From contig NZ_BBBG01000003.1 of assembly GCF_001315945.1 (NCBI RefSeq), forward strand, positions 76,468 to 116,467: DNA of 40,000 nucleotides, read 5' to 3'. Position 1 is the first letter of the stretch. Every line of letters starts with the position of its first letter. Both the position numbers and the translations under genes were made by a program. The notes below the pieces were generated by a model, which was given only the letters and a program-made list of their open reading frames with translations, searched no databases and was not told where the DNA came from. Below are positions 4,970 through 38,909 of the stretch, in pieces. Source of the DNA: Methanogenium cariaci JCM 10550. Lineage in GTDB: Archaea > Halobacteriota > Methanomicrobia > Methanomicrobiales > Methanomicrobiaceae.

Positions 4970-4998
4970 AGTCCACCTCTAAAGAATTGCTTTATTAC

Positions 4999-7021: not shown

Positions 7022-7135
7022 TACTCAATAATAATCGTTGGAAATAAAAACTCTGCGTAAATGTCCTCTTCGGAAGATAAGATTCCATTCCTCAAAAAGA
7101 TTAATCATCTGTCGGATAGATTAGCGATATAAGAG

Positions 7136-7410: not shown

Positions 7411-7419
7411 CCGCCGCCA

Positions 7420-12404: not shown

Positions 12405-12411
12405 CGGTTTT

Positions 12412-15465: not shown

Positions 15466-15469
15466 ATCT

Positions 15470-15676: not shown

Positions 15677-15682
15677 AATATA

Positions 15683-16356: not shown

Positions 16357-16955
16357 CGTTTTCACCCCCCCGCATGGTTCCCACAAGGGACATCTTGGCG
16401 GTTACTTTGGCAAGGATTGCTCCTCCGGCAAGCATGACGGCAAAGAACCAGTATTCGGGAACGATCATGAAGATAAAGAACGCGACAATCCAGAAGGTCC
16501 ATGCATATCCCGATACGGTCTCGACAAGGGCAAAGCGTTCGGACGATTTCTTTCCCATGAAGTAAAAGACCATGCCGGTGCCTGCGACCGCTCCTCCGGT
16601 AAACCCGGAGAGTACGATGCCGTAAAGGACGAGGATGACCGCGATGATCGTGGGGGGCGGTGTCCATGACCTCAATCCGGAACGGGGCTTTTATGGGACG
16701 GGTCAGGTGTTCCCGGACGAGATATATCTCGGAGAGCGCCATCAGTTCGGATATGCCGACGACAAGGCCGGGGGGGATGATGAGGGCTTCTGCAAGGTCG
16801 GTTGCGATGAGCGCGATGACCGCGAGGGCCGATACCTCGGCAAGGTCGGCAATGATCAGCCGGTGGATGTCGTTTTTCTCCCGGAATGCCGCGACAAAGG
16901 TGATGATGATGGCAACGAGGGCGACACTGAGGCCGATGGTGTATTCATTCATCAT
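16349..16955 (-). CDS. Integral-membrane hydrogenase subunit (about 200 aa), break at the G6 run 16652-16657
   Basis: MNEYTIGLSVALVAIIITFVAAFREKNDIHRLIIADLAEVSALAVIALIATDLAEALI...IEVMDT joins to ...PPTIIAVILVLYGIVLSGFTGGAVAGTGMVFYFMG... Confidence 0.6.
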
Positions 16956-17437
16956 TCGTCCTCCCTCCGGTAAAGGAATGAGGCGATGGCAAAGGCGGCG
17001 AACAGGATACTTGTCTCGACGATGGTATCCAGTCCCCCCCGGGTGTTGTAGAGAATCTCATCGATGATGCCTCCCGGATGGGAGACGATGGTGGTGCCGA
17101 GATACTGGTTTGAGATGGCCATAAGTGCGGAGAGCGGAGTGAGGTATGCGGTCACATATCCCAGGTAGGGGGAGTTCTGCGGGTACTGTGCTGCCACTTC
17201 GGTTGTGCCGAACGGAACTCCTCCCCCCCGGTCGTAGGGGGGGTTCAGGGCAGAAGAGGTGTTGATCTCCTTGGGATAGAGCTGTGTCTCTTCGTATCCG
17301 ATGGGGGCTGCGATGCTAATTATAAGGGCAATACCGGCGATGGCAATGACGATCACCGCATAGATGGCGATCAGGTTGTCGATGTCCGCCATGTAGCGGG
17401 AGAGCTGTTTAATCACAGGGTTCACCCCCCCGTTCAA
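16952..17437 (-). CDS. Membrane hydrogenase subunit with an MnhB-like C-terminal segment
   Basis: 161-aa ORF: IAIYAVIVIAIAGIALIISIAAP...GGLDTIVETSILFAAFAIASFLY. Start uncertain (TTG, G run at about 17421-17427). Confidence 0.55.
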   Translation of the reverse strand: MNGGVNPVIKQLSRYMADIDNLIAIYAVIVIAIAGIALIISIAAPIGYEETQLYPKEINTSSALNPPYDRGGGVPFGTTEVAAQYPQNSPYLGYVTAYLTPLSALMAISNQYLGTTIVSHPGGIIDEILYNTRGGLDTIVETSILFAAFAIASFLYRREDE

Positions 17438-17651
17438 TGACCCGTATCAAAACGATGGTGGCAATCGCGGTCACGGCGACAAACGTCAAAAGCGCGATGG
17501 TCTCATTGTAGGCGAGCATGATCAGCATGAGGCCTGCACCTGCCATTTCTACATGGATCAGCCGGGAGATGTAATCCCTCTCGCGCGGGAAGGCGGAGGC
17601 CGCAACGCCTGCCAGAAGAATGATAAAGCCGAGGATGAGTTCAGGCGTCAT
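17409..17651 (-). CDS. Small integral-membrane hydrogenase subunit
   Basis: 80-aa ORF: MTPELILGFIILLAGVAASAF...AGAGLMLIMLAYNETIALLTFVAVTAIATIVLI. Confidence 0.55.
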   Translation of the reverse strand: MTPELILGFIILLAGVAASAFPRERDYISRLIHVEMAGAGLMLIMLAYNETIALLTFVAVTAIATIVLIRVIERGGEPCD

Positions 17652-17884
17652 CGGTATTCCTCCCGGTGGCCTGAAGAATGAATATCGTCGTCAGGGGGGG
17701 CATGATGATCGCAACCAGTATGGCCACATCAAGGTAGCCCTTCAGTACGATGAGGGGGGATCACCCCCCCGCCCATCATGACGGCAAGCCCGATAAGTTT
17801 GTCAAAGGGACTCGGTTTGATGTAGACCGCGATGACGCCCAGCAGGGCAATCAGGCCGAGGATGAGCATATAGAATTCATTCAT
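17641..17884 (-). CDS. Small integral-membrane hydrogenase subunit (frame break at the C/G run near 17757-17770)
   Basis: MNEFYMLILGLIALLGVIAVYIKPSPFDKLIGLAVMMGGG, then my translation of the next frame, PLIVLKGYLDVAILVAIIMPPLTTIFILQATGRNTDDA*. The stop overlaps the next ATG region. Confidence 0.5.
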
Positions 17885-18141
17885 GTGAAATCCCTCCTGC
17901 ATAGGTGCTGGCAATCGCATTGGCTTCCAGGGTTGAACCGACAAAATAGGCGATGCCTGCGAAAAGTACCATGATGTCAGGGATGGACAGCACAATCAGT
18001 CCCGTGATGGCGAAGTTCATGACGTTCAAAAAGACCAGTTTTTTGAGAGTGTGCTTCTCAGTCAGAATACGGATGACCGCATACAGGGCGACAATCCCGC
18101 ATAGATATGCAGATCATGCCCGCATCATATATGGGAATCAT
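17877..18141 (-). CDS. Small integral-membrane hydrogenase subunit (frame join unresolved near 18080-18100)
   Basis: ATG at 18141 ([10 protein letters not shown]...). The downstream frame reads ...GIVALYAVIRILTEKHTLKKLVFLNVMNFAITGLIVLSIPDIMVLFAGIAYFVGSTLEANAIASTYAGG. Its stop overlaps the next ATG (CATGAATGA). Confidence 0.45.
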
Positions 18142-18631
18142 GCCCGGACCCTCCATATTCTGGTCAGGAGATGGCTTGCATATGGGTGGGACAGTCCCTG
18201 GATGGTGAGGATAGCGATGACCATGCCCGCGATGAAGGCGTCGGCGGGTATCCCGATGAGGCTGAAGCCTGCGATCAGGAATGTGGCGCAGAAGGCGCCG
18301 GTGTTCCGGCGTATCCTGGGTCATGACAGATCCTGTTTCCGACGAATACAAGGGCGGTGGCGATGAGTCCGCCGGGGGGGATACCGGCGACGAACACTCC
18401 GCAGGCCGCAAGCAGGGTTCCTGCGGATGCATCGGGGGGGGAACAGACGATATTTCCCATCATATATCCGCCATTCAGTGCGCCCTTGTCGGCGGCGATG
18501 CTGGTGCCGATGGCAGTTGCACCGCTCACCCCCCCTCCCTTCTCCGGAAGCCTGAATATAATATCAATTGTAATAAAAAGAATCCAGCAGACAAGCGCTG
18601 CAACTATTATGTTTACGACCACGCCGGGCAT
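18138..18631 (-). CDS. First integral-membrane subunit of the hydrogenase operon (about 164 aa, frame break near 18300-18330)
   Basis: [26 protein letters not shown]...[21 protein letters not shown], then my translation [46 protein letters not shown]..., stop in an ATGA overlap at 18138-18141. Confidence 0.55.
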
Positions 18632-19906: not shown

Positions 19907-20029
19907 GGAGAGAATAATAATTCTAACACTCATACCCGTTTTTCCGATTTTTCCGATTTTACCCTGATTTTTTCAACGAGATATACAAGGATTATACCTT
20001 TTTAGTGACAACAATGTTGTCTGTATTTG

Positions 20030-20116
20030 GCGAGGGTTGCCGAGTCGGTCAAAGGCGCTGGGTTTAGGGCCCAGTCTTGTAGAAGTTCGCGGGTTCGAAT
20101 CCCTCCCCCCCTCGCA
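20030..20116 (+). tRNA. tRNA-Leu (anticodon UAG), class II with long variable arm; no encoded CCA
   Basis: Hand-folded. Acceptor GCGAGGG/CCCTCGC plus discriminator A. Anticodon stem CTGGG/CCCAG with loop TTTAGGG. Variable arm CTT-GTAG-AAG. T-loop TTCGAAT. The C7 run 20105-20111 is 3 nt longer than the fold allows (C4 expected), and there is one C:T mismatch in the T-stem. Confidence 0.85.
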
Positions 20117-20126
20117 TGACTTTTTT
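20110..20126. repeat. Left copy of the casposon target-site duplication (attL), spanning the last 7 nt of tRNA-Leu plus 10 nt downstream
   Basis: CCTCGCATGACTTTTTT versus CCCCGCATTTGTTTTTT at 35026-35042, 13/17 identical by hand alignment. Each copy abuts a TIR. Confidence 0.7.
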
Positions 20127-20159
20127 GGGTTATAGTTAGTTGTGAAAAACGCCACTATT
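20127..20159. repeat. Left terminal inverted repeat of the casposon
   Basis: GGGTTATAGTTAGTTGTGAAAAACGCCACTATT is the exact reverse complement of 34993-35025. Confidence 0.9.
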
Positions 20160-20217
20160 CTAAATGTAAACATTCAACAAATATTCTAACTGTTTTGGGC
20201 AAGTTGGATAGGAGATA

Positions 20218-20598
20218 TTAGAAATGTTGCAAAATGATTCTAAAATAAAACCCTACATACACAGAAGCTAGACCAAATAAAAATCCTGATACAAATCTCT
20301 TGGTATTATTACTGGTATAGCTGCTTAAACATTGTAAAAATCCATCAATAATTAAAGGCAATAATAAGACTGGAAGTAAAATAATGGGCAAATGGTAGTT
20401 CATTAATAGTAATATTATACCAATTATGCCTCCAACAAGCATACCAAAGCATCTGGCACACAAGTATCTTTCAATTCCAAAAAACTTAATCGATCTTTCT
20501 GGCATATGATGACAAAAACAAAGGACATATGTTCTATTTTTTATAGTCATTAGTAAAGATAAGCCGTAAGAGTCAAGATTACAAATAGAAAGGTCCAC
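20218..20598 (-). CDS. DUF2085-like membrane protein (casposon cargo)
   Basis: 126-aa ORF: CFCHHMPERSIKFFGIERYLCARCFGMLVGG followed by TM helices. Confidence 0.6.
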   Translation of the reverse strand: MDLSICNLDSYGLSLLMTIKNRTYVLCFCHHMPERSIKFFGIERYLCARCFGMLVGGIIGIILLLMNYHLPIILLPVLLLPLIIDGFLQCLSSYTSNNTKRFVSGFLFGLASVYVGFYFRIILQHF

Positions 20599-21046: not shown

Positions 21047-21535
21047 TTATATTTTCTTGGAGGCCATCATATGATTTTCGTCATTTTCCAAAATGAGCAT
21101 ATGTTTCCCAATCCATCCCTCAACATGATATTCATCAGATTTAATTTTACAGGAAACATAACCCTCGTCAAGGATTTTTTCATCAATAATCTCTACTCTT
21201 ACATTCTTATCTGCAGGCAGTTTACCAACAATTTTTAGGTATTTTCTCTCTGGAGTTTTCCAAACGTTAACAGTATCTCCGATCCAATATTCTGCAGATT
21301 CAGGATCATTTATACACAAATTAATGATCGCATATGTTTTGGTTGGTGTAGGCGTAACAATTGTTTTGGTAGGTGATACTTGAGATGATTCAGGCAGTTC
21401 TCCTATTATTGCTCCCCCAAACTGCTCCAAATATAGTGAAAAATAAAAAGAGTCCAACACATCCAACACATATAATGACAAAATTCTCTTTATTTGATCT
21501 TTTAGGTGGTGAGTCTGGTGATGGTTTAGCTGCAT
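21047..21535 (-). CDS. Hypothetical membrane-anchored protein with an SH3-like C-terminal half (cargo)
   Basis: 162-aa ORF in the AT-rich segment. It has a Thr/Pro linker (TKTIVTPTPTKT). The C-terminus WIGDTVNVWKTPERKYLKIVGKLPADKNVRVEIIDEKILDEGYVSCKI...GWIGKHML resembles bacterial SH3 domains. Confidence 0.4.
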   Translation of the reverse strand: MQLNHHQTHHLKDQIKRILSLYVLDVLDSFYFSLYLEQFGGAIIGELPESSQVSPTKTIVTPTPTKTYAIINLCINDPESAEYWIGDTVNVWKTPERKYLKIVGKLPADKNVRVEIIDEKILDEGYVSCKIKSDEYHVEGWIGKHMLILENDENHMMASKKI

Positions 21536-21696: not shown

Positions 21697-22191
21697 ATGT
21701 CACACTTTTACATGAAAGAAGAATCAATTGAAATTACACGAAACCACATTGATATAATAAATTCAGTGATTGAAAATTCCATCCAATACGAAGATCTAAT
21801 GGATAATAAACGAAGACTTGGTATTACGGGAGAAGTTGGTGAGATCGGAGCTTGTTTCAAATATAACTTAAGATTGGCAAAAAATTCTCAATCTGCTGGC
21901 TATGACGCTATTGATAGTGAAGGAAAAAAGGTTCAAATTAAAACACGAAGAATTGTTTTAGGCCGGAAATCAATAGAATCAAAAAGGCTCTCTTCGTTCT
22001 CTGAACATAAATTTGACTATTGCCTTTTAGTTCTCCTTGATGAGAAATATGATATTTATGAAACGTGGAAAGCCGAGTCATCAGCCATAATGGCTGTTGC
22101 TCGTGATCATAAAAAATGTCAACCATCTATACGTGAATTTAAAAATGAGGGCGAGAAGATTTTCGATAGAAAAACTATGGAAATCTCATGA
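21697..22191 (+). CDS. Small PD-(D/E)xK-type (restriction-endonuclease-fold) protein, DUF6998-like (cargo)
   Basis: 164-aa ORF: GITGEVGEIGACFKYNL...SAGYDAIDSEGKKVQIKTRR, giving an E...D...QxK arrangement. Confidence 0.5.
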   Translation: MSHFYMKEESIEITRNHIDIINSVIENSIQYEDLMDNKRRLGITGEVGEIGACFKYNLRLAKNSQSAGYDAIDSEGKKVQIKTRRIVLGRKSIESKRLSSFSEHKFDYCLLVLLDEKYDIYETWKAESSAIMAVARDHKKCQPSIREFKNEGEKIFDRKTMEIS

Positions 22192-22315: not shown

Positions 22316-24864
22316 TCAACCCCCACACTCTTCAGCTACCTTCTGAGACATGGCAATAATCTTCTTCATGATCTCAGCCTTATCGATAAACTTCTGAGCC
22401 TTCCGAACTTCCAGTGCCTGTTCATCAATGTTGTTCGCTTCCTTCCCTATGTGAGCCACATCATCAGCCACAATATGTCTCCTTTCAAGCAAACCAACAT
22501 CCCCCCCATCAAACTTGTGTTCCGGGTGATTGGCATAATCAAGAATGGTCTGGCAAAGTGCTCTGAAGTAGTGCGAACCCCCCCGCTTGATTTTTCCGGT
22601 CTGATAATCGATGAACTCCCTGTGAACAATTGACTGTGGGTCTTTGGAGAACGGACATAGCGGTTTAACAGGAACACCATTCTCATCCTTCGTTTTAAAG
22701 CCGACAAGATAGAAATTGAACGGCTTAATCTGATCATCCCATGCTTTCCCTTCATTAAAACTATCAAACCTCTTCCATACATGAGAGGTGCTGACCGAAA
22801 GACGGGAGACCGCATAAAATTTTGAATACTTCTCATAGATCTCCATCGCTGAAACAAACCCATAGTGCATACTCAGGATGTCCTGCCAGACTTCAGCCTG
22901 CCAGTCCTTCACATTATTCGGGAAGGGGGGGTTTGCCAGATGTCCCAGACCATGCAGCTTGTATGACCGTTCACCATCCATGAACCGAATGTCCTTGCCG
23001 TCAAGATAGTAGAGAGCATACCGCTTTGAAGAGATGCCATAGAACCACATGTCCTCCTTTTCAGGCTTGAGCAGAGGTATTTCAATGCTATACGGGTTCA
23101 GTGGCTGGAAGAAGTCAAGGATGGGCTGTGCAAGGTCGGGCGGAACAAAAATACTGTCAGTATCCATGTAGGCATGCTGCCCACCCAGCTCCAGCACCTT
23201 TGCCTCAGCCATTGCGAGAAAGAGACGTGACCCTGCAGTAATCATTACCGCCATAAGAGGGTGGAAATATTTCCCTTCTTTCTCATGCCGGTTCTCTACA
23301 GTCGTGAAAGAATCAATACCATTCACCTCAACAGGACTTTTCTTATCTTCTGGATTGAGTTCAATGAAGATACCATAACTCATCGCATTGACAAGAATCT
23401 TGATGGCCTGTGCCTGGCTTGAGAGGTGAAGATATTCAGGATCATCTTTGGAGATGGTCTTGAGGTTTTGTTTAATCTCCTGTCTCTTTTCAACCAGCAC
23501 CTGAAACAGATTGTCCCTGCGAGGGTCAATATCAACCCCCCCATGAATCCGGGTCTTCTGAAGGCTGGCCTGTTGTCCTACCGGGACAAACCGGATGGCT
23601 TCAATAATGTCAGGCACTTTCCCGGTGAGCAGCACCGAGCCGATGACATCCGGCAGGGCATACCACATATCTTTCGCACTGGAGAGGTAATTGAGTCCGA
23701 CCACATAGGGAGAGTCATCTCCTTTATAGTCCATCCTCGCCGGGAGAATATCATCATCCGGTCGCAGCTTGACAAGAACACAGAAGTCCTTCCAGATATC
23801 AGGGTTCTGTAAGTCTGCAAGGGTGAGAGAAGAAAGGAACGCTTGTATTTCGTCAGTCGCATCCATTGATTCAACACGATCTGCAATGAGATAGGGCCAG
23901 AGACCCAGAATCATGGTAATGGTTGGATACATACTGGTAAAGTCAAGCACCGACACCTTGGTCGGCTGTTTACGTATCCTGCATTCCGTCCTTCCCCCCC
24001 CGTAATACGCTGACATGATATTACCGAGAATAGCATCCGGAAAGTCAGGGTTCTGCTGATGAAATGGTGTGACAACCATCTGTTTGAGGGCATACTTCCC
24101 GATGGATGCTGAGCTGAACACCTTCGTGAGAGGGATACCAATCTGGAAGAGATCCAGTTCCTGTACAAGCCTGCGATAGACTTCATAGGTCGCTTCGACA
24201 TCCCGGATGTTGTATTCAATATATTTCTCCGTCACCCGTCCATGAGAGACATTGGTATATTTCTCATGGCTGATGTTGAGCATCTCACCTGCACGCTGAA
24301 GGGAGACACGTTTTGCCTGAAGCATTACCTCAGCCAGTTTCTGCACGTCCAGAAAATACCCGCCAAAAAATCTTTTTTCATATTTTTCTTAGTCGAGCTG
24401 AACTTCATGCTGTAAGCGCTTCCCAGCTGTTTTACAATAATGGGTGGTTGCATACGGTCTTCAGAAAGGGTGAGGGTGAACCCTCCTTTGTTTCGTCCGC
24501 GTGAGTGAGCTGCCTTGTGAGCAATCCGACTGAGGTCAAACGGGAGGTTGAACCCAATACAGAGGTTTTTAGATCAAAGACTTCTCGGTAGAATACTTCA
24601 TCGATGAACTCTTTCTGGGAGTAAAGCTCAATGGAATTCTGCTCTGCATACCGTTTCAGGGTCTTTCGTTCACGGTTGTCAAGGTGTGCAGCATTATAGA
24701 TCAGGCCGTGATGCTGTAAGATGTCGTCCTGATAGATCTGGAAATACCCGATCTTCAGATTCTGATACAGGTCAATGGTGGTCTCTGTATCAAAGACCAA
24801 GACACGGGAATGCCTGGGCGGGTGGTCGGGATAAAAGGCTGTTTTCCCCCCTTCCCCTTCTCAT
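22316..24864 (-). CDS. polB: Family-B DNA polymerase of the casposon (about 849 aa; N-terminal quarter broken at A/T and G runs)
   Basis: Exo I: VLVFDTETTID. Exo II after correcting the A5 run: LCIGFNLPFDLSRI. Motif A: VLDFTSMYPTI. SAYYGGGRTE (a G8 run where family-B polymerases have YGG). Motif C: HAYMDTDSIF. The ATG at 24864 sits in an ATGA overlap with the HNH stop. Confidence 0.88.
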
Positions 24865-25235
24865 TGAGTTTTCGAGTGTATCCACGGACTGCTAACACTG
24901 GCATTCTGCTGCACCTCATGGGCAAATTCGATAAGTGACTGACCAACATATTTCAGAAGTGCACCAAGGCTCAGGAGCCAGAATGCAACCTGTTCTGCCT
25001 GAAGACCATTGGCAGCGCGGGCTTTCGGAGGAAAACGGTTCTGCTCCATTGTTACCTTTGCGTGACAGTTCTTGCAGAGAGGAACGGTCTTCTCAGATGT
25101 CGCTCTACCATCGACATGGTGCATCTCAAGGAGGGCTGGATTATCTTCTCCACACATTACACAGCATTGCACGGTCTGGCCTGACCGGATCATCTTCTTT
25201 GTTGTATTTTGGTAGGTTTTTTTGTCCATATGCAT
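24861..25235 (-). CDS. HNH endonuclease
   Basis: 124-aa ORF: CCVMCGEDNPALLEMHHVDGRATSEKTVPLCKNCHAKV. Confidence 0.8.
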   Translation of the reverse strand: MHMDKKTYQNTTKKMIRSGQTVQCCVMCGEDNPALLEMHHVDGRATSEKTVPLCKNCHAKVTMEQNRFPPKARAANGLQAEQVAFWLLSLGALLKYVGQSLIEFAHEVQQNASVSSPWIHSKTQ

Positions 25236-25240
25236 CGCTC

Positions 25241-25882
25241 CTATGACTGATAGATCTCGAAAAATTCCGGTTCTTCTTCTGCATCCTTGATCTCATACAG
25301 GCGTTCCAGATCGGTTTCAAACCGGTAGCGGATACCGTTGGCATCAATAACTACCATCTGCTCAAATCGCTTCAGGAGTGCTGGGTTGTTATCCTCAATT
25401 GCAAACCGGACATAGGCATGGTATCGTGCAATCCGTGTTCGGTCTACTGAGTTTGCAACGGGAATCGAAATATGACCCTTCTCACGGTCATAGATCATCA
25501 TCTCAACTTCTATGCGGTCTGTTTTGTTGATGTGCCAGTAACCACGTTCCTTCCGGAGATTCAGGCCAAGATGTTTGACAGCAGTGTCACGTGAAAGACC
25601 CAGCTCTCTGAACTTTGGGGAGAAGTGTTCACCATTCCGCATGGCACGGAGCAGTTCAAGGGAGAGGAGCCGTTCACGCTTCTCTTCAGGAGAGAGATCA
25701 TTCCACGGGTTATTACTCAGGTCATAGTCTCGGACGCGGAGACCCTTCAGCTCTTTCAGGCTCTTGCCGGGAAATCGTTCATGGAACCGGATGATACGCT
25801 TTGCATACCGTGATTCCCGTGGGTGTGCGTTGAGCCACTCGCCATAGGTGCGATACTCCTGAGAGAACCGTTTGCGGCTCAT
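25241..25882 (-). CDS. Hypothetical 213-aa casposon core protein
   Basis: Intact ORF at the core GC level, between the RHH and HNH genes, start in an ATGA overlap with the RHH stop. No motif recognised. Confidence 0.5.
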   Translation of the reverse strand: MSRKRFSQEYRTYGEWLNAHPRESRYAKRIIRFHERFPGKSLKELKGLRVRDYDLSNNPWNDLSPEEKRERLLSLELLRAMRNGEHFSPKFRELGLSRDTAVKHLGLNLRKERGYWHINKTDRIEVEMMIYDREKGHISIPVANSVDRTRIARYHAYVRFAIEDNNPALLKRFEQMVVIDANGIRYRFETDLERLYEIKDAEEEPEFFEIYQS

Positions 25883-26150: not shown

Positions 26151-27029
26151 TGCAATAATCCAGTATCTCTCCACTCATCCCCCCCAACAAGAACCTCCAA
26201 ACTTGTGAGAGAGATCGTGGAAAATCACAAAGGTGAAAGGGGATTTAGTGAACCAAGCCTGTACAGGTCAATTGAATATTTGGACAAAGCAGGCATGATT
26301 GCAAAAATTCAAAATCCAGACCTTATCGCCTATGGAATCAAAGAATCCAATAATAGAGCCGTCTATCTCACGCTGAAGCCCTTTGCAGAACGAAAAGAAC
26401 ATCTTGACACATTATTTGGCCTGCTTTCCAAAGGTGACACAGCAGATATCAGGATGGTTCTCGATGAAATCCGACTTTACCGTGACAAATACATTCTCAC
26501 ACCAAAACAGTTAGACTCGATTGTCAACCTGCTGACCAAAGACGCTGATATTGCCAAAGCAGCTACCGAAATTCTCTATGATTATTTCATAATACGGGAA
26601 ATTCCACCTTTTGAGAAAGACCGGTTTAGGGTTCTGCTGCGTGCAAGCCTTACACAGTTTGACATTCGTGTGCCGCAAAATTCACAGATGCGTAATCAAC
26701 ATATCCGCATGCTCGGAAAGTTGAGGGATGAAGGGGGGGTGGTATCCCAACTCATTGAGGATGCCCGAAACGCAGATGACTTTGAATCTCTGAAGAACGA
26801 TTATCTGACAAATTTCACTGCCTTTATCATTGAATCACACCGCACGGAACTCTTCAATCTGGAACGCGAACTGCGAAAGGGAGACCGGGTGAAAGAGGCC
26901 GATACTCTTGCAGAGATACGTAAGTATGCAACGGAACATGAGAGTGACCCGCTTGATGCAACCGACCCGATGGAAGGCATCATAGGTGCGCCTGAACTGA
27001 AAGGACTGCTCAAGGGGATGAGGTCATGA
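26128..27029 (+). CDS. Winged-HTH DNA-binding protein upstream of cas1 (N-terminus restored across the C7 run 26179-26185)
   Basis: From ATG 26128: MSDAKSDSAIIQYLSTHP. With a C5 run it joins in frame to TRTSKLVREIVENHKGERGFSEPSLYRSIEYLDKAGMIAKI (wHTH). The stop overlaps the cas1 start. Confidence 0.65.
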
Positions 27030-28252
27030 AGTTCCTGCTTCTCAACGGGCATGGGATCAGCATGAAAGTTGACCGTGCACACCTCCATATCACGGACGGA
27101 CGGTTCTCTACCGAAGAGGAGCCTGCGAAGTATGTCTTCCATCCACAACGTATTGACATCGATTCCATTGTGATCTACGGGAGGAGTGGCAACCTCAGTC
27201 TTGAAGCCATTCGCTGGCTTGTCAAACACAATGTGCAGGTGTCTGTTCTCGATTGGGATGGAACCATGCTCACCACCATGCTCCCTCCGGAGAGCGTGCA
27301 GGTGAAAACGAAGTTTGCACAATACCGGGCATTTGACGATAAGAAGTTGAGACTGAAACTCGCAAAGAAGTTTATTGAATCCAAGTTTGACCGCTCCCAG
27401 ATCGTCCTTGACTATCTGCACCAGCGCTATCCGGATGTTGACCCTGAGATTCCCTATGAACCAAAGAATCTGAAAGACGCAAAGTTGATCCGTGAAGTGA
27501 TGGGAGTTGAGGGAGCTGTTGCCCAGCACTACTGGAAGCAGTTTGCCAAAGTCATCCCTGAAGAGTATGAGTTTGAGAGCCGGACGGGACGTTACCACAC
27601 ACGGCCATCAGGTGCAGGGGGGGATCAGGTCAATTGTATGCTGAATTATGGGTATGCCCTTCTCGAAGCCGAGTGTTTGCGGGTCATCAACAGTGTTGGT
27701 CTTGATGCACATGTAGGATTCCTTCATGAGATGCAATCCGGCAAGAACAGTCTGGCCTATGACATGCAGGAGTTGTTCCGGTTTCTTGTTGACCTAGCAG
27801 TTGTCAACCTCGTTGAGCGCGAAGCGATGACCGCGAAGGATTTTGTCAGGACTGAGAGCTATGCACTGAGGTTACGGCCCACAGGTGCACGCAAGATGAC
27901 GGAAGAGGTGAACGCATGGTTCAACAAGACGGTTGAGTATCAGGGCAAAGAGCTGATGTGGAGTTATGTGATGGTGCTGAAGGGCAGGGAGCTGGCGCAC
28001 TATCTGACTGGGAAGAAACAGTCGTTGTGTTTCATGAAACCGGAGTATCAGGTTGACAGGGTTGATACGGATGACGTCCGTAGGAAGATACTCAGTATAT
28101 CATATGCTGACTGGAAGAAACTGGGTTTCTCAAAAGGTTCATTGCACTATATGAAAAAGAACGCAGAGTCTGAGAAGCCGTTTTCCCTCAATCAACACGT
28201 TGTTGAACGGTTGATGCAATGGGATCAACTGAAAGAGACGCTTACGGTCTGA
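27026..28252 (+). CDS. cas1: Cas1 homologue (casposase) with a C-terminal HTH
   Basis: Intact 408-aa ORF: MGVEGAVAQHYW (catalytic Glu), NCMLNYGYALLEAE, GLDAHVGFLHEMQSGKNSLAYDMQELFR (His and acidic residues). C-terminus: ISYADWKKLGFSKGSLHYMKKN. Confidence 0.9.
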   Translation: MKFLLLNGHGISMKVDRAHLHITDGRFSTEEEPAKYVFHPQRIDIDSIVIYGRSGNLSLEAIRWLVKHNVQVSVLDWDGTMLTTMLPPESVQVKTKFAQYRAFDDKKLRLKLAKKFIESKFDRSQIVLDYLHQRYPDVDPEIPYEPKNLKDAKLIREVMGVEGAVAQHYWKQFAKVIPEEYEFESRTGRYHTRPSGAGGDQVNCMLNYGYALLEAECLRVINSVGLDAHVGFLHEMQSGKNSLAYDMQELFRFLVDLAVVNLVEREAMTAKDFVRTESYALRLRPTGARKMTEEVNAWFNKTVEYQGKELMWSYVMVLKGRELAHYLTGKKQSLCFMKPEYQVDRVDTDDVRRKILSISYADWKKLGFSKGSLHYMKKNAESEKPFSLNQHVVERLMQWDQLKETLTV

Positions 28253-28619: not shown

Positions 28620-31600
28620 ATGTCCATAGAATGGGATCGATTAAGATCCTTTGACGGATCTGTCCAACATGCTTTTGAAGAGCTATGTGCTCAATTAGTT
28701 TCAAATGAAAAGTTTCCTTCAGATTCAACGTTTGTTCGTAATGGATTGCCCGATGGAGGTGTTGAATTTTATTGGACATTACCGGATGGAAAAGAATACG
28801 GTTGGCAGGTCAAGTATTTTACTAATTTAAATGATAGTCATCGTTTTTCTCAAATAGACCGTTCTGTCAAAGATTCCATTAGAAATCATCCAAATTTGAT
28901 TAGTTATACAGTCTGCCTAGCAATGGACTTGCCTGATGCAAAAGTTAAAAACAAGAAATCGGCTAAAGAAAAATGGGATGGATATGTAATAAAATGGAAT
29001 AAAATAGCACAGGAAAATGGAAAGTCCATTGAATTTCGATATTGGGGTGATCATCAAATCTGGAAACGATTGAGTGCTGAAGAAAACCGAGGTAGACATT
29101 ATTTTTGGTTCAATAAAGATTTTTTTAGCAATGAATGGTATAAAAAAAGCATTGAAGTATCTCGTGCTAACGTTGGCCCTCGATATTCAAGTGAATATAA
29201 TGTGGATTTACCAATTATAAAATACTTTAATGGGTTAGGACGGACGAATGATTTTTTTAAAGAATTCACGCCTTTATTCAATAATATCCAACGCGCATAT
29301 AATTATTTGGATCTCAAAAAAATTGAGGAAATAATTGGGACATCTGAGCCGGTTATTGATCAAGACATTGAAGAATTAGAAAGAATTCATGGCAAGATTT
29401 TAAAACACCAACTTGGTTTTATTGATTTTAATTCAATTAATGTATTATGTTCGACAATCCAGGTCATATTAACAGATTGGAATAATAATATAAAACAAAA
29501 AATTAGAGATGAAAAACGGGATTGGATTGAACAAAATCGAGATAAGGATAAACTCTATTCTCACCTTCAAAATTATGAAGATCCTTATAGCAAACTGTTA
29601 CAATTAAATCAGGAATTATCAAATCTAAAAGAATTTGCATTAGGTAACGCTGGTAGATCCGCGAATATCCCATTATTGTTAATTACTGGTAATGCAGGAA
29701 ATGGTAAGACCCATCTCCTTTGCGATGTTGCGGTGAGAAGGATCGGAACAGATTTACCAACAATCCTCTTATTAGGAAGTCATTTTAGAGATGATGAACC
29801 TTGGAATCAGATTATAAAGCATCTTGGTTTAAATTGTAATCGTGATGAATTTTTAGGAGCACTAAATACAACAGCCGAGATTGCCAAATCAAAATGTCTA
29901 ATCTTCATTGATGCACTGAATGAAGGTGATGGGAAAAAACTATGGAGAAAGTATTTAGCGGGGATGATCGAAACTCTCAAAAATTACCCCCCCGTTTGGG
30001 AATTGTTTTAAGTGTACGAAGTTCTTACAAAAATATCATAATCCCTGAAGGATTTGATTCAAATAATTATGTTGAAATAATTCATGAGGGATTTTCAGGT
30101 CATGAATTTGAAGCAAGTAAAATTTTTTTTGATCACTATAATATTGAGAGACCCACAATACCAATCCTAAATCCCGAATTTAAAAATCCATTATTTTTAA
30201 AAACTTTCTGTGAAGCCATTCAAAATCACGGTGAGACAAAAATACCAGAAGGAATCCAAGGGATTTCTAAAGTTTTTAACTACTATATTGACTCTATCGA
30301 TGAAAAATTATCAAGAGAAGAATATTTGGATTTTGATCCAAAATCGAAAATTGTCCAGAAAGCAATGGAAGAGATTGCATCACATATGGCAGAAAACGGA
30401 AATCCTTGGCTATTATACGAAGATGCTAAAAATATTGTTGACAATATTCTTGGGAATAAAAAACATTCTCAATCCCTTTTCCGACATTTGGTTTCCGAAG
30501 GAATACTATCTGAGGATGTGATTTGGGATAAAGATGATAATTATAATGAGGTTATTCGTTTTTCCTACGAACGTTTCTCTGATTATTTAATAACCGAAAG
30601 TTTGTTTAAATTACATTTTGAATCTGGTGAAATTTGTGATCTATTCAAAAATGGAAAACCTCTGTTTCAACTCATCAAAGATGAACCAACCTGTTGGCAG
30701 AATCAGGGACTAATTGAAGCGCTATCTATTCAAATTCCGGAACGTTACGGACAAGAGTTATCAGATGTCGCACCACATTGTGCTAACTTTCAATCGGTAC
30801 GAGAAGCATTCATAAATAGTATTATTTGGAGACATCCCACTGCGTTCTCTAAGTCTACATTGACATACATCAATAACTATATTCTTAAAACAAGAAAACC
30901 CCATGACCAAAATTTGGTTTTCAATTTGTTAGATGCATTCTTACAAATCTCCTCTAATCCAAATCATCCGTATAATGCAGATCAACTTCATAAATGGCTT
31001 TTTAATTTAAAACTTGGAGTCAGAGACAGTTTATGGACAGTCTATCTCTCTCGTCGATACAACGATGAAACATCAATTGATTCTTTAATTGAATGGGCTT
31101 GGTTCAGTGATGTTAAAGAAACTATAGATGATGAATCAAGAAGGTTATACGGAATTACTCTTGCTTGGTTCTTGACATCATCTCATAGATATCTACGAGA
31201 TCGAACAACCAAGGCTCTCATTTCACTTTTCTCAAACCACTTAGATCTCTTTCATAAGATCCTTGAAGATTTTATCGAAGTAGATGACCCATATGTATTG
31301 GAACGCCTTTTTGCAGTTGCATATGGTTGCGCAATGAGAGGTAATGATACGGAAAACATTGCAATACTGGCAAAAGATGTATTTACTTGGATCTTCGAAG
31401 ATGGGTGTCCGCCACCCAATATACTTCTACGCGATTATGCACGAGGTTTAATCGAATGCTCTCTCCAAAAAAACGGAGATATGAATATTAATGTTGAAAA
31501 AATTCAACCCCCCCCATATACAAGTGCGTGTGAAGACTTTATTCCTGATATAAATGAATTGAAAAAAGATGAAATTAGAATAAAAAAATTATGTGAAAAT

Positions 31601-33218
31601 AGCAAAGCTGCGACTGAAATTTATGATTCAGTAATGGGTTTTGAGGATTTTGCACGATATGTTATAGGAACAAATTCAGATTCGTTTGATTGGTCTTCAA
31701 GACGATTAAAGAATTCACGACCTACTGTCATGGAGAGATACCTGAATTTTGTAGGATCATTAAATAAAGATAAGAAAAATGCTTGGGATAAATTTGAATA
31801 TCACTTTAACGCAACAAAAAATCCGATTATATCAGAAAATAATGGTGACTTTTCAATAATAATTGAGAAGAAATTCTCTGCTAGAACAATTAAGAAATAT
31901 GAGAATTTGCTATTAAGTTCTTTAAACTCAAAAGAAAAGAAAATCTTTGATAAATATGTCATTCCCTATCTTGAAAACCCACATAAATACAGAAAGGACG
32001 ACAAAAAATTCAATATTACTATAGCACAGCAATGGATTTTAAAACGAGTATTTGATTTAGGTTGGACCGAAGAGCGTTTCGGAGATTTCGATAATTGGAT
32101 GATCATTTTGAACAATCGGAATTATATCCGAGCCGCAAATAAACCTGAAAGAATTGGGAAGAAATACCAATGGATTGCATATTATGAATTTCTTGCAATC
32201 GTTTCTGATAATTTCAAACTTAAAAATGATTATTGGGGGGGAGGACAATCTTCTTTAAAATATGACGGCCCTTGGCAGTTAAATGTGAGAAATATTGATC
32301 CTTCTATTTTATCAATAAAAACCGAACCTCCAGGATGGGAATCAGATGGGTCAGAAAATAACTGGTGGTTCACAGAACAATATAACCAAAAAGAGCCGAA
32401 TGAAACAGATGAACAATGGATATCAGGTTCCAATGACCTTCCTAATGTAAAAGCATTAATCCAAGTTACTAATCCCAAAGACTGTTCTGAATGGTTGAAT
32501 TTAAATGGCATATACAATTGGTCTCAACACACGGATTCTGATGAAATTATGCATAAAACAAAGCGAGAATTGTTCTATATAATTCATGTATATATTGTGA
32601 AGAAGCAGGATAGTCAAAAAGCATTCAGATGGGCACAAAAGGTAAATTTTAAAGGACGATGGATGCCCGATCCCTTCGACTTCCATACAATTTATCTTGG
32701 GGAATTTGTGTGGTCTCCAGCGTACATCGGTACAACTGCAAATGGATATTCTGAATGGAAATTAGGACTACATTATGCAAATAATAATATTCCATGTCCA
32801 ATTCACAATCCTTGTGTAAAATATAATTGGAGTTCTGGGGGGTTATGACTGTTCTATAGAAGAAGGAATTTCAATCTCTATCCCATCCGCATGTTGATAG
32901 AAAAAATGGGTCTATCATGGAATGGAGAGGAAGGCAAATGGTTTAATAATAAGGGAGAACTTGTTGCATTCGATCCCTCAGTAAATGAGAGAGGGCCCCA
33001 ATGTTTACTGATTAATAAAAAATATTTCACTTCCTTCTTAAATGAAAATGGTTATGATATTTTTTGGGCACTGCTCGGTGAAAAAAATATAATTTCAGGA
33101 ATGCCCCCCTTCAAGCTGTTTGTATATAACTGGCGCTTACCAGTTAAAAGATAATGAAGTGATCGGTAAGAAAAAATCAACATATACTGTTTTTGATGAT
33201 GGTATAGAAAAAACCTAA
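28620..33218 (+). CDS. Giant (~1,530 aa) Mrr-like PD-(D/E)xK nuclease plus STAND-like P-loop NTPase plus large uncharacterised C-terminal region; at least 4 frame breaks
   Basis: N-terminus: FEELCAQLVS...GLPDGGVEFYW...GWQVKYF (Mrr-type D...QxK). Walker A: LLITGNAGNGKTHLL (about 29686-29715). Walker B: CLIFIDALNEGD (about 29895-29930). ORFs 28620..30011, 29942..32848 and 32891..33154 join at the C7 run 29987-93, the G6 run 32837-42, about 32889 and the C run 33103-10. The tail SSCLYITGAYQLKDNEVIGKKKSTYTVFDDGIEKT* ends at 33218. Confidence 0.7.
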
Positions 33219-33250: not shown

Positions 33251-33664
33251 TTATTTTTCTCGAATTACATATATATTTGATACCTTTATTATTGGATCTT
33301 GCACACTCCAAGTATCATAAAAATGGATTTCACTTTCAAATATTTCATTCGGTTTAAAATCGTTTATTTCAAATTCTTTGCATTGAAGTTCTTTTGTTCC
33401 TTTAGAATTCAGCATTGTAACCTTGAAATGAACATCCTCAATAACATGACCATTATTTATTGCAACAATTTGAATCGGATAATCAAAACGCTGTATACCT
33501 GCACGTCCAAGGTCAGATAAAGAATTCATATTATGCTCTAAAAGTGTAGTTTCAATTGAAATATTCTCTGTTGGAGTCAATTCGTATGTGACACATCCAG
33601 GAATAAATATTACAAGAAATGATGAAAGAAGAACTAAGATCTTAAAGAATTTCATATATGACAA
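33251..33664 (-). CDS. Putative lipoprotein/secreted protein (cargo)
   Basis: 137-aa ORF: MKFFKILVLLSSFLVIFIPGC (signal peptide with a lipobox-like Cys). Confidence 0.45.
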   Translation of the reverse strand: MSYMKFFKILVLLSSFLVIFIPGCVTYELTPTENISIETTLLEHNMNSLSDLGRAGIQRFDYPIQIVAINNGHVIEDVHFKVTMLNSKGTKELQCKEFEINDFKPNEIFESEIHFYDTWSVQDPIIKVSNIYVIREK

Positions 33665-33815: not shown

Positions 33816-34013
33816 TTAGAAATATCTACTGACAATCCCGATAACACCAAGTCCTCCAAAGATAAGCCCAATACCAACTCCACCCCAAATTGCGAGTTGT
33901 CCTGCTGTGGCGTTAACGTCGGTGGCACTTAATATAATTCCAGCAATGATCAGGACAGGTACTATTCCTACTCCTTTCATACCGAGGCCAAATATTTTTT
34001 GAGTCATGTTCAC
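33816..34013 (-). CDS. Small Gly-rich two-TM membrane protein (cargo)
   Basis: 65-aa ORF: GVGIVPVLIIAGIILSA...LAIWGGVGIGLIFGGLGVIGIV. Confidence 0.4.
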   Translation of the reverse strand: MNMTQKIFGLGMKGVGIVPVLIIAGIILSATDVNATAGQLAIWGGVGIGLIFGGLGVIGIVSRYF

Positions 34014-34109: not shown

Positions 34110-34906
34110 ATGGCTGGAATTGAAAAGACAATTCATATCATCCCACTGGGTCACGAAATTGATCGTGCGGTAATCCCATTTGATGATACGACAGTTGATC
34201 ATGTTTACATCCTTACCGGGCTCAAAGAAACAAATTCCCGAATGGATTTGAGTAAAAAACAACAATATTATGCTAAAAAAGTAAGAGACAAATTACAGGA
34301 AAAAGGCATATTTGTAACATGTATTCATATAAATCTCTTCGATTTACGTGAAGTAATGAAAACAATTTCAAAAATAATCGTAGAAGAAAAAGCAAAAAAT
34401 AACCGTATTTTTGTAAATATGTCCGCTGCAGGGAGACTAACATCAGTGGCAGCAACACTTGTTGGAATGGCTCATGATGTTCAAGTGTATTATGTCCATG
34501 CTGATGAATATCCTGATGATGAAGAAATCAGAAAAATTCATGGTTTGAGCATCTGTTCTTCTCAGGAAATTACGCAATTATCAAATTTTAAAATTGTAAT
34601 GCCTGATCCTGAAGATTTAGAAATACTTCTTTTCCTTACTAAAAGAGATACGGCCAGAATGAGCGATATTTTGGAAATGATGCATGAAAAAAATATTGAA
34701 GGTTTCGAGGAGGATTTTAAGAAAATTGAACAATCTCAGAAAAAAAGAAGAGTTCAGAGCAGGCAATTAATGAAGCTGGATAAAACGATTATCGCTCGGT
34801 TAAAAAAAATGGATTTGTTTCTCGAACCAAAAAGGGCAAATATACTTATGTTTCAATAACCGAATCAGGAAATTATGCAGCACATATCAGTGGTATGATG
34901 GAATAA
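34110..34906 (+). CDS. Csa3/CARF-like Rossmann N-domain plus C-terminal wHTH regulator (HFX_2341/DUF6293-like); frame break at the A8 run 34803-34810
   Basis: N-terminus: KTIHIIPLGHEIDRAVIPF...VYILTG...IFVNMSAAGRLTSVAATLVG. After the A run, my translation gives GFVSRTKKGKYTYVSITESGNYAAHISGMME* (wHTH wing). Confidence 0.5.
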
Positions 34907-34992
34907 TTACTATTATTGATATACACAATTCTATTTTCAGAAGAATGCATCGCTATGCGTTTTTTCTAACAGAACAGTGAAAGTGATTTTAA

Positions 34993-35025
34993 AATAGTGG
35001 CGTTTTTCACAACTAACTATAACCC
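34993..35025. repeat. Right terminal inverted repeat of the casposon
   Basis: AATAGTGGCGTTTTTCACAACTAACTATAACCC is the exact reverse complement of 20127-20159. Confidence 0.9.
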
Positions 35026-35042
35026 CCCCGCATTTGTTTTTT
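35026..35042. repeat. Right copy of the target-site duplication (attR-like, retains a tRNA 3'-end-like CCCCGCA)
   Basis: CCCCGCATTTGTTTTTT versus 20110-20126. The exact C count is unreliable. Confidence 0.65.
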
Positions 35043-35071
35043 GGGTAATAGTTATCTTGTAATTTTGCAAC
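35043..35071. repeat. Degenerate second left-TIR copy
   Basis: GGGTAATAGTTATCTTGTAATTTTGCAAC versus GGGTTATAGTTAGTTGTGAAAAACGCCAC. The first 12 nt are 11/12 identical. Similarity beyond that needs one indel. Confidence 0.5.
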
Positions 35072-36884: not shown

Positions 36885-38321
36885 ATGGACTATCATAGAA
36901 TTAAAAATCTCAAAGAAAGTGATCCAACAATACGGTTGTTCAATGCCGATAATAGTCCACTAATCATTAGTTTTATTTTCCAAGCATTTAAGCAGAATAA
37001 CAAAATCACGATATCTAATGATGAGCTCGTTTCCAATCTTACCGACACAATTTATTTAATCCGAAATACTTGCGGAGAGGAATTATATCCTGATTCTGCT
37101 CAAAATTACCTTGACAATTGGGCAAATGAGGCATACTTAAGAAAATATTATCCCGCCGATAATGATGAACCCTGTTTTGAACTTACTCCATCAACTGAGA
37201 AAGCATTAGAATGGATAAAGGAGCTAGAGAATCGGGAATTTGTAGGTACTGAATCTCGGCTAATTAAAATTATTGAGATGCTGAAGGAAATTGCTTATAG
37301 AAATTCAGACAACCCAACAATACGATTAGAAGAATTAGAAAGGAAAAAAAGTGAGATTGAAGAAGAAATCAATAAAATTAATTCAGGGATACTTGAAAAA
37401 TTTAGTGATACACAAATTAAAGAACGATATTTCGATATTTACGATACCTCGAATAAATTACTCTCAGATTTTAAGCAGATTGAATACAATTTTCGCCAAC
37501 TTGATCAAGACGTCAGAAAAAAGCAGATTACCAGTGAAGTACAAAAAGGAGAGCTTTTAAATGATATTTTTTCGAGTCATGACATTCTTTCGGAGTCTGA
37601 TCAAGGGAAAAGTTTTCGAGCTTTTTGGGATTTACTGCTGTCCCAAAACAAACAGGATGAATTGGACGAATTGATCGAATTAATCGTTCATTTGCCCGAA
37701 ATTCAGGATATTAAAAGGGATGACACTCTTGACGGATTGAAAGATCATCTTATTGAAGCAGGATATAGGATCAATAACACGAATCACATACTAGTTGAGC
37801 AATTGCGAAAATACCTTGATGATAGGATTTATTTGGATAATAAACGGATTATTGAGATAATTAGGGACATTAAATCAATTGCAGTTGAAATAAAAAACAA
37901 TCCCCCAAGCAATAAAGAGATTATTACAATTCCTGATCGCCCACAAATTGAGATGATTATGGAACGTCCATTGTGGGATGTATCTATCAGTCAGGATTTG
38001 AGACAAATCGACCTTGAAGAAGGTAACTCGACATTGGTTGATACCCAACAATTGTATTCTCAATTTGATATCAATCAGGAAGAACTTAGGTCGAGAATTG
38101 ATGAATTACTTTCGATCACCTCTCAATTTACGTTGAAAACACTCATTGAAAAATATCCTGTTGAACGAGGACTCGCAGAGATTCTTATCTATGTTGATAT
38201 CGCATTAAAAAATGAGAAAGCATTTGTTAACGAAAATATTTCTGAAACGATGATCGTATGGAACAAAATATCGAATAGATATTTCGAAATTCAACTTCCT
38301 CAAATTATTATTAGTAGGTGA
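36885..38321 (+). CDS. jetA: Wadjet JetA (DUF3375, MksF-like kleisin)
   Basis: Intact 478-aa ORF: IKNLKESDPTIRLFNADNSPLIISFIFQAFKQNNKITISNDELVSNLTDTIY. This is the typical DUF3375 N-terminus, and the gene sits first in a jetABC order. Confidence 0.75.
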   Translation: MDYHRIKNLKESDPTIRLFNADNSPLIISFIFQAFKQNNKITISNDELVSNLTDTIYLIRNTCGEELYPDSAQNYLDNWANEAYLRKYYPADNDEPCFELTPSTEKALEWIKELENREFVGTESRLIKIIEMLKEIAYRNSDNPTIRLEELERKKSEIEEEINKINSGILEKFSDTQIKERYFDIYDTSNKLLSDFKQIEYNFRQLDQDVRKKQITSEVQKGELLNDIFSSHDILSESDQGKSFRAFWDLLLSQNKQDELDELIELIVHLPEIQDIKRDDTLDGLKDHLIEAGYRINNTNHILVEQLRKYLDDRIYLDNKRIIEIIRDIKSIAVEIKNNPPSNKEIITIPDRPQIEMIMERPLWDVSISQDLRQIDLEEGNSTLVDTQQLYSQFDINQEELRSRIDELLSITSQFTLKTLIEKYPVERGLAEILIYVDIALKNEKAFVNENISETMIVWNKISNRYFEIQLPQIIISR

Positions 38322-38328
38322 GAATGGT

Positions 38329-38909
38329 ATGGATAACGAGACTTTACCCTATGCTCTAGCTGTAATAAAATTATTAAAAGGCGTTGTATACAGTGACGAT
38401 AAGACCGTTTGGAATTGTCTCATTCAATACCAGCGGGATATTAAACAACATTTTTCGGGAATAGGAATTGAAGTATTTGTCCAGGAAAGCGAAGGATTTG
38501 CTTACTTAAAACAAAAAGACAGTGATCCAAGTCAGGAAGAAAACCTTCCCCCCATATTATTGAGAGAAGACAACTCAGTTATCCTGTTACTCTACTCTCT
38601 GTCCTGCTATTCGAAAAATTAATTGAATTCGATATGAAAGGTGGAGATTCTACAAGATTAATCATTGATCGTGAGGAGATCAAAGACTCTGTAAGAATAT
38701 TTCTCCCGGAAGGTTCAAACGAGGCTAAATTGACTGACAAAGTTGATAAACATATCAAAAAACTTGTAGACTTTGGTTTTTTAAGAGTACTGAGTACTGA
38801 TTCGAATAAGTTTGAAGTCAGAAGAATTCTGAAAGCAAAAATATCTGCTGATGGACTTCAGGAGATTAAAGCAAAGTTGGGGGGGGAACATGCAAAACTC
38901 CTTAATTGA
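38329..38909 (+). CDS. jetB: Wadjet JetB (DUF4194, MksE-like), frame break at the C6 run 38548-38553
   Basis: PYALAVIKLLKGVVYSDDKTVWNCLIQYQRDIKQHFSGIGIEVFVQESEGFAYLKQ. After the C run: HIIERRQLSYPVTLLLSVLLFEKLIEFDMKGGDSTRLIIDREEI... Confidence 0.72.

Follow-up and report, generated by a model that had tools for sequence, protein, structure and literature searches.

The 40,000-nucleotide stretch analysed here (the window: positions 76,468 to 116,467 of contig NZ_BBBG01000003.1, assembly GCF_001315945.1, from the archaeon Methanogenium cariaci JCM 10550) contains at 28620-33218 on the + strand a large gene of the Avs2 (AVAST type 2) family. Very probably, this gene encodes a single-protein Avs2 antiviral STAND NTPase and belongs to the right-arm cargo of a family-2 casposon, 14.9 kb long, that is inserted at the 3' end of a tRNA-Leu gene. 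The real product has 1,529 amino acids (aa), the copy in the window being split by homopolymer indel artefacts. With confidence evenly balanced for and against, a wider reading can be added: related family-2 casposons, with cores 89-93% identical, may be tRNA-Leu-targeting shuttles for whole defence systems, with the arm downstream of cas1 as the exchange slot, and the M. cariaci element would then represent the first NLR-like receptor on a self-synthesising, Cas1-driven transposon.

Assignment to Avs2 was carried by searches with profiles and against structures. The PADLOC Avs2 model PDLC02164 matched residues 1-1521 with 1646 bits (model positions 2-1495 of 1504), five further Avs2 models also matched, and the NCBIfam equivalog NF041813 ('AVAST type 2 anti-phage system protein Avs2') was covered from position 3 to 1317 of 1317 with 1472.9 bits against a cutoff of 1000. 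A phmmer search of the PDB returned EcAvs2 of E. coli as its sole match (9O4E, chain 9o4e_A; residues 169-1520 against 165-1483, E=1.8e-220). In RefSeq, the 968-aa piece of the gene (WP_157199913.1) is already named 'AVAST type 2 anti-phage system protein Avs2', while the 463-aa piece (WP_157199912.1) is named 'hypothetical'. A search of 5.8 billion proteins produced 1097 homologues at E<=1e-10, many of them named Avs2 by NCBI; the best 120 of these, from archaea (Methanomicrobiales, Helarchaeota, Theionarchaea) as well as many bacterial phyla, were nearly all 1500-1550 aa long and colinear, with 39-67% identity. Judged by these matches, the product of the large gene is a full-length Avs2, a known family and not an undescribed system. 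The original prediction, made from the letters alone, had stated that the protein could not be assigned to a described family and was the best candidate in the window for an undescribed system. Both statements are overturned by the curated models, the EcAvs2 homology and the RefSeq name; placement in an already characterised family, which the prediction had itself listed as contrary evidence, is what the searches returned. Its description of a nuclease joined to a STAND NTPase and a large sensor, with Avs/NLR-like logic, was correct.

At the level of Pfam the protein does appear as an orphan, as an undescribed STAND/NLR-like defence family would: the full protein gave just weak P-loop matches (NACHT, nSTAND5 and AAA_16, E about 0.05-0.08), and the Pfam search found no match on the N- or C-terminal regions, which is why the protein could not be placed at first reading. 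Both regions were resolved by PADLOC, NCBIfam and the PDB. Given full-length, above-cutoff matches to curated Avs2 models, homology to EcAvs2 that spans the helical extension, the ATPase and the sensor, and the name Avs2 in RefSeq, an undescribed family is already refuted and retains virtually no probability. Classification as a NACHT-type NLR was likewise rejected, as PF05729 scored 13.9 bits against a cutoff of 26.7 and matched P-loop residues 353-381 only.

The N-terminal region (approximately aa 1-165; 28620-29114, + strand) is a predicted Mrr-like PD-(D/E)xK nuclease effector in which residues of the catalytic type are conserved. As EcAvs2 carries a different effector, the first 185 residues were analysed separately. 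The candidate catalytic residues E20, D45, E49, Q63 and K65 were invariant in 29 homologues, and an AlphaFold2 model of residues 1-185 built on the 29-homologue alignment (pLDDT 84.6, pTM 0.77) had the alpha-beta-beta-beta-alpha-beta core of PD-(D/E)xK nucleases. In a sequence-profile search of this domain against the PDB the best match, to EcAvs4 residues 5-91, was marginal (E=0.13), and the assignment therefore uses the fold search: Foldseek against the PDB placed the N-terminal nuclease of EcAvs4 first (8dgf_A, E=1.9e-4, TM 0.52), followed by EndoMS/NucS, the nuclease domains of Can2/Card1, and EcoO109I. The likeness to EcAvs4 (8DGF), which has the FE..C helix and the G(V/I)E and WQxKF motifs in common, is limited to the effector domain; the sensor of Avs4, which detects the portal protein, has no homology to that of M. 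cariaci. The Mrr-like N-terminus of the original prediction is borne out by the invariant residues and the modelled fold. Pfam Mrr_cat gave no match at E<=1, and a stand-alone Mrr or type IV restriction enzyme was rejected, since the nuclease is fused to an Avs2 STAND module and sensor and its nearest structural relative is an Avs4 effector.

Between effector and ATPase lies a helical extension (approximately aa 166-345; 29115-29654, + strand), which aligns to EcAvs2 from residue 165, and a large helical extension has been described at the matching position of EcAvs2 (PMC13601566). The STAND NTPase motifs, read directly in the sequence, are a Walker A (GNAGNGKTH, 29688-29714) and a Walker B (LIFIDALNEGD, 29898-29930), both on the + strand; the residues G357, G360, G362, K363, T364, D431 and E435 were invariant among six Avs2 sequences, and the region aligns to the EcAvs2 ATPase. 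The remainder of the protein (from approximately 30700 to 33218, + strand) corresponds to the Avs2-type TPR-like sensor and C-terminal domain (CTD), colinear with EcAvs2 and covered by the Avs2 profiles. Its alignment to the EcAvs2 sensor is unbroken to residue 1483 of 1484, the last 400 aa alone giving E=1.9e-52. The C-terminal region of more than 1,000 aa, in which no repeat family had been recognised, is thus by alignment to EcAvs2 the Avs2-specific TPR-like terminase sensor, and what had been called unassigned therefore resolves, through the match to 9O4E, into an Avs2 helical extension, STAND ATPase and TPR-like sensor. Sensor type is clade-specific in Avs2 (PMC13581612), and most Avs2 homologues carry Mrr-like dsDNA nucleases as effector (PMC13601566); the Mrr-STAND-sensor architecture is the commonest in the family.

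In the window, the gene comprises ORF (open reading frame) pieces on the + strand at 28620-30011 (463 aa), 29942-32848 (968 aa) and 32891-33154 (87 aa), with a tail that stops at 33218. The frame breaks fall at C7 29987, G6 32837, GG 32893 and C6 33104, and joining the frames across them gave a protein of 1532 aa that is colinear with intact homologues through every junction. A run of 968 stop-free codons would arise by chance at the base composition of the gene with a probability of about 2e-35. All quoted motifs were found at the spacing given earlier (FEELCAQL at aa 19-26, PDGGVE at 44-49, QVK at 63-65, GNAGNGKTH at 357-365 and LIFIDALNEGD at 427-437), and the expectations of a single long gene of about 1,530 aa (four pieces joining to 1532 aa, with an intact 1529-aa counterpart), very rich in AT and making up some 30% of its element, held as well: the GC content of the gene is 33.7%, against 53.7% in the host part of the window, its lowest 60-nt window reaches 16.7%, and its share of the 14,899-bp element is 30.9%. 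TATA-like AT-rich stretches lie 40-70 bp upstream of the Avs2 ATG.

The frameshifts are assembly or sequencing artefacts, and the gene is intact. In a second M. cariaci assembly (GCA_054654835.1) the Avs2 ORF is unbroken (1529 aa; GAB7015889.1 / WP_460007099.1), and the joined window protein is identical to WP_460007099.1 at 1528 of 1532 positions (99%), with one residue changed at the 32893 junction and three gaps of one residue each at homopolymers. When window positions 18584-40000 (21.4 kb) were compared with the second assembly by blastn, there were 0 mismatches and 36 gaps, all of which were differences in the length of homopolymer or dinucleotide runs, mostly 1-3 surplus G or C in the window. 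Six of these indels lie in Avs2 between 29987 and 33109 (29987, +2 C; 31508, +3 C; 32235, +3 G; 32837, +1 G; 32893, -1 G; 33104, +1 C), a density of 1.3 per kb that is similar to the 1.7 per kb outside the gene. Indels elsewhere (for example at 19187, 22501, 24365, 27617, 38548, 38879 and 39785) also fragment the host AI-2E transporter gene, PolB, JetB and JetC, and single residues are added to Cas1 and Avs2; in the clean assembly all genes of the locus are intact (AI-2E transporter 346, PolB 888, Cas1 407, Avs2 1529, JetB 191 and JetC 1132 aa). It is the combination of 0 substitutions with 36 homopolymer indels between two assemblies over 21.4 kb that identifies the frameshifts as artefacts, as had been suspected, and no genuine stops that would make a dead gene appear in the second assembly. 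A real loss of frame, with Avs2 a relic decaying in an immobile element, might be read from the four frame breaks in the window sequence, and homopolymers are natural slippage hot spots too; with the intact ORF, the lack of substitutions, the similar indel density within and outside the gene and the damage to host transporter, PolB and JetB/JetC, the pattern is the signature of systematic base-calling error, and such a relic is very improbable. An in-frame TGA at 32846 was considered as recoding and rejected, as the +1 G at 32837 and -1 G at 32893 cancel out. In the host part of the window (1-18500), overlapping ORF fragments suggest the same homopolymer problem, and there is a practical lesson in the systematic G/C-homopolymer inflation of the older M. 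cariaci assembly, which at approximately 1.7 indels per kb in this region fragments many genes.

The element around the gene is a family-2 casposon, as shown by its core genes, terminal inverted repeats (TIRs), target site duplication (TSD) and tRNA target, and Avs2 lies inside it. It is 14,899 bp long, with Avs2 in the right arm between a left TIR at 20127-20164 (38 nt, also present in Methanogenium sp. S4BF) and a right TIR at 34988-35025, 97% complementary to each other. The 14-bp left TSD copy, CGCATGACTTTTTT (20113-20126), starts in the final bases of a tRNA-Leu gene (20029-20115, + strand, identified by ARAGORN) whose 3' end is the integration target; the right copy, CGCATTTGTTTTTT (35029-35042), is identical to the left at 11 of 14 positions, positions 35026-35028 being artefactual surplus Cs. 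The earlier placement of the gene between casposon TIRs was in this respect accurate. The core consists of the casposase Cas1 (27026-28252, +; Pfam Cas_Cas1, 2.7e-67), an artefact-split PolB of 888 aa in the clean assembly (22316-24800, -; Pfam DNA_pol_B_2, 2.9e-9, and DNA_pol_B), an HNH nuclease (24861-25235, -; weak HNH match, 0.009), a 213-aa ORF (25241-25882, -) and a putative HTH protein (26205-27029, +). The last three belong to the 6.1-kb core, other casposons encode homologues of them, and nine further elements contain the core genes. The PolB-Cas1 core has a GC content of 47%, each arm one of 32-33%.

Related elements were sampled by recruiting loci with Cas1, 78 from genomes and 80 from metagenomes (158 in total; loci are cited below by L number), in which the elements with resolvable TIRs were mostly 8.4-12.5 kb long. 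Cas1 proteins at least 90% identical to that of M. cariaci are encoded by Methanogenium sp. S4BF and by metagenomes. The TIRs recur in the S4BF element, which lies beside a tRNA-Leu gene and shows a TSD matching at 12 of 14 positions; its 6.1-kb PolB-to-Cas1 core has 92.9% nucleotide identity to that of M. cariaci, whereas neither arm is related. The region downstream of its cas1 holds a type I restriction-modification (R-M) system (HsdR, HsdS, HsdM) and a protein with a TIR domain (TIR/bSEFIR-like; L004 11411-18371). A metagenomic relative, which is bounded on either side by the TIR motif and has a TSD matching at 14 of 14 positions, holds in the same arm a full-length Dsr1 (PADLOC, 1386 bits), and Dsr1 was found downstream of cas1 in three metagenome contigs (including L005 13085-16759 and L088 10293-13970). 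Three more distant relatives, one of them from a Woesearchaeota metagenome-assembled genome (MAG), have a type IIG R-M enzyme just after cas1 (L025 11209-13902, L093 11308-14319 and L100 8763-11738); the left arm of L025 encodes a DitA/DUF5677 protein, and another element carries a methyltransferase. Relatives also lie beside tRNA-Leu genes, with anticodon tag in two and taa in one. Because near-identical cores carry differing systems in the arm downstream of cas1, this arm behaves as a variable defence-cargo slot, and we infer that defence systems are swapped there between close casposons. In a Methanomicrobiaceae MAG with a Cas1 95% identical (L011 8394-9473), the usual post-cas1 segment recurs approximately 0.9 kb further downstream; this repeat suggests an insertion or duplication at the junction of core and cargo, a putative exchange point.

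Several of these features have counterparts in the family-2 casposons of Methanosarcina mazei, which share the Cas1, PolB, HNH and HTH core, likewise target the 3' end of tRNA-Leu genes and also occur in tandem. Their TIRs are 31-59 bp long (38 here), and their 14-bp TSDs have four conserved 5' bases and an AT-rich 3' end (PMC4779613). The present element differs in its host, a member of the Methanomicrobiales, in its size, which is near the top of the 6-16 kb reported (PMC4046053, PMC4779613), and in arms that carry a complete Avs2 and a gene like those of methyl-directed restriction enzymes (REases). A further parallel is found in pipolins (PMC11551731), in which a conserved module for mobility and replication is likewise joined to AT-rich defence cargo that varies, also between close relatives, but the mobility module of the M. 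cariaci element is a casposase with PolB. When PADLOC was applied to 48 casposons in 2024, they had a lower share of defence genes than pipolins (PMC11551731). Casposon genes listed by Krupovic et al. in 2014 include Sir2-like proteins, a restriction endonuclease, methyltransferases and a KAP NTPase, with 'defense functions' mentioned (PMC4046053). No paper was found in the full-text library searched that joins casposons with antiviral Avs proteins, or casposons with Methanogenium; the cargo-slot pattern is a modest addition to known ideas, apparently without an earlier report, and the shuttle reading assumes that this pattern has had no earlier systematic description.

Beyond the right end of the casposon, a second, degenerate left-type TIR, GGGTAATAGTTATCTTGTAATTTTGCAAC, directly follows the right TSD (window 35043-35071), and an AT-rich island of approximately 12 kb comes after it (L086 8165-20000). 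No matching TIR, TSD or tRNA fragment was found within 13 kb as the far end of this second TIR-like element. The second TIR of S4BF is cleaner (L004 18603-18635); it lies 14 bp from the right TIR, to which it is 85% complementary. The second TIR and the island may represent a decayed tandem casposon or another element at the same site. Just outside the casposon is a complete type I Wadjet (JetABCD) anti-plasmid system, with JetA at 36885-38321, JetB at 38329-38909, JetC from 38851 onward, and JetD with additional genes in L086 15367-21096; after it, in the clean assembly, come a 763-aa AAA_13 ATPase and then MJ0788, DUF2283 and DUF3800 genes. Since Wadjet lies outside the casposon, the tRNA-Leu site is a defence island as well as a casposon target. 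This neighbourhood leads to the question whether Avs2 is true cargo at all, or part of a tRNA-Leu-linked defence island, with the right TIR contributed by another tandem element and the 14.9 kb a non-mobile composite. The degenerate TIR at approximately 35043, an AT-rich island running on for about 12 kb (Wadjet, AAA_13 and others) in which no closing TIR was found, the different GC content of arms (approximately 32-33%) and core (47%) and the imperfect TSD (11/14) would all fit such a composite. On the other hand, the two TIRs show 97% complementarity, and both lie at exactly 14 bp from matching CGCA...T-rich repeats. This layout, with cargo enclosed by the TIRs, recurs in three related elements of 14.3-14.9 kb, and the TSD of one of these is perfect (14/14). 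Tandem casposon insertions are documented as well (PMC4779613). A composite is consequently improbable, and carriage of Avs2 as cargo within the casposon remains the preferred explanation.

Other genes within the TIRs include, in the left arm, a DUF6998 protein resembling type II methyl-directed restriction enzymes (21697-22191, +; Pfam DUF6998, 3.3e-9; PADLOC mREase_II, 1.9e-14), a second possible defence gene in the same casposon. A gene with CARF-like and winged-helix domains (HFX_2341_N and WHD_DUF6293; 34110-34859, +; PADLOC CARF3, 1.3e-89) adjoins the right TIR and points toward it, and its S4BF homologue is 86% identical; that homologue (L004 18723-19382, -) adjoins the TIR of a second tandem element in mirror orientation; whether casposons recurrently carry a Csa3-like regulator gene close to a TIR may merit study. 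The remaining cargo genes had no match in the defence libraries: a DUF2085 membrane protein (20218-20598, -), a 162-aa ORF (21047-21535, -), a 137-aa protein whose N-terminus is like a lipoprotein signal sequence (ORF137; 33251-33664, -) and a hydrophobic, glycine-rich 65-aa ORF, possibly a membrane protein (33816-34013, -). No conserved Avs2 partner gene was found, and because the gene beside the closest archaeal homologue bears no relation to ORF137, which lies downstream here, Avs2 was treated as a single-gene system.

How the protein would act can be proposed by analogy with EcAvs2 and KpAvs2, from experiments on which the steps of sensing, tetramer formation and DNA degradation are drawn. 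The cryo-electron microscopy structure of EcAvs2 (9O4E) was reported by Evans et al. (Nat Commun 2026, PMC13601566). The M. cariaci protein shares with it a homologous helical extension, STAND ATPase and TPR/CTD terminase sensor, and belongs to the same NCBIfam and PADLOC family. The two differ in the effector, which in EcAvs2 is uncharacterised and of a less common type and in M. cariaci is Mrr-like, and in that the M. cariaci gene resides in an archaeon and in a casposon. In KpAvs2 of Klebsiella pneumoniae, K71A and K337A mutants lose defence, and DNA is degraded non-specifically (Bechon et al., Nat Commun 2024, PMC11564622). KpAvs2 is described as combining an Mrr-family endonuclease, a STAND NTPase and a long Avs2 sensor, and both its nuclease lysine K71 (here K65) and its Walker A lysine K337 (here K363) appear to be present in the M. 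cariaci protein; the gene for KpAvs2 shares its three-gene operon with one radical-SAM gene and another gene whose function is unknown, in contrast to the M. cariaci gene with no conserved partner found. In an infected cell, the C-terminal TPR-like sensor would bind a viral protein that is conserved; the likeliest candidate is the large terminase of an archaeal tailed virus, bound at its ATPase domain. The STAND modules would then oligomerise with ATP into a tetramer and so bring four N-terminal nuclease domains together, and the activated nuclease would cut DNA indiscriminately and abort the infection. Non-specific DNA degradation leading to abortive infection, as in KpAvs2, would thus be the expected outcome, and the casposon would benefit by protecting its host.

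A number of points weigh against this picture of a mobile, casposon-borne terminase sensor. The trigger, oligomeric state and nuclease activity of the M. cariaci Avs2 are predicted by homology, and a role in virus defence, likewise predicted, is supported by the surroundings, an island rich in defence genes (Wadjet, CARF-like and mREase-like). In a hand count on the alignments, three of the nine EcAvs2 residues reported to contact the terminase or the bridging ATP are identical (D981, R1130 and E1444); the other six have changed (T1128 to N, R1132 to Y, W1266 to I, E1362 to S, E1364 to G, and E1462 within a 4-residue deletion). KpAvs2 is also triggered by non-terminase proteins (PMC11564622), and the target in Methanogenium may therefore differ. 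The TSD copies match at just 11 of 14 positions, and the signs of mobility for the 14.9-kb element are indirect, namely relatives at different tRNA-Leu anticodons and a single perfect TSD. Finally, tblastn identified no other Avs2 in the 158 Cas1-recruited loci, and the most similar archaeal Avs2 (67% identity, from Methanomicrobiales HGW-3) lies outside any casposon. Among the casposons examined, that of M. cariaci is so far the only one to carry Avs2 and, with Avs2 in none of the other Cas1-related loci, its association with a casposon may have been a one-off acquisition.

The changed contacts bear in particular on the trigger. The protein could be a genuine Avs2 that senses another viral protein, or a protein of a rival element, in its archaeal host, and so serves the casposon in competition with other elements. 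Activation of KpAvs2 by the unrelated phage proteins Ksap1 and Ksap2 (PMC11564622; PMC13601566) and the six unconserved interface residues would agree with this, as would the presence of more foreign DNA, including the Wadjet anti-plasmid system, at the tRNA-Leu site, for which other mobile elements compete (Krupovic 2016, PMC4779613). Against it stand the clade-specific nature of the Avs2 sensor type (PMC13581612) and the redundancy of EcAvs2 recognition, which tolerates terminases of <10% identity (PMC13601566). Interface drift that keeps pace with the overall divergence is therefore to be expected and is no argument for a new target. A different trigger is thus unlikely, less so than a composite element, and the large terminase is retained as the preferred target.

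Taken alone, the Avs2 gene adds little, as it is a typical Mrr-STAND-TPR Avs2 already caught by annotation pipelines; it could be used as an archaeal representative for asking whether Avs2 senses the terminases of archaeal tailed viruses. The interest lies in the casposon context, where near-identical cores carry different complete defence systems inside the TIRs. Tn7-like and P4-like hotspots also bear defence cargo that can be exchanged. Casposons have been discussed chiefly as forebears of the CRISPR adaptation module. If a systematic survey confirmed the pattern, they would be counted with pipolins, Tn7-like elements and satellites among the vehicles of mobile defence genes in archaea, and the TIRs, 14-bp TSD and tRNA-Leu target would constitute a simple natural system for cargo exchange. 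Innate immunity would then be carried by the very kind of element that is thought to have founded CRISPR adaptation.

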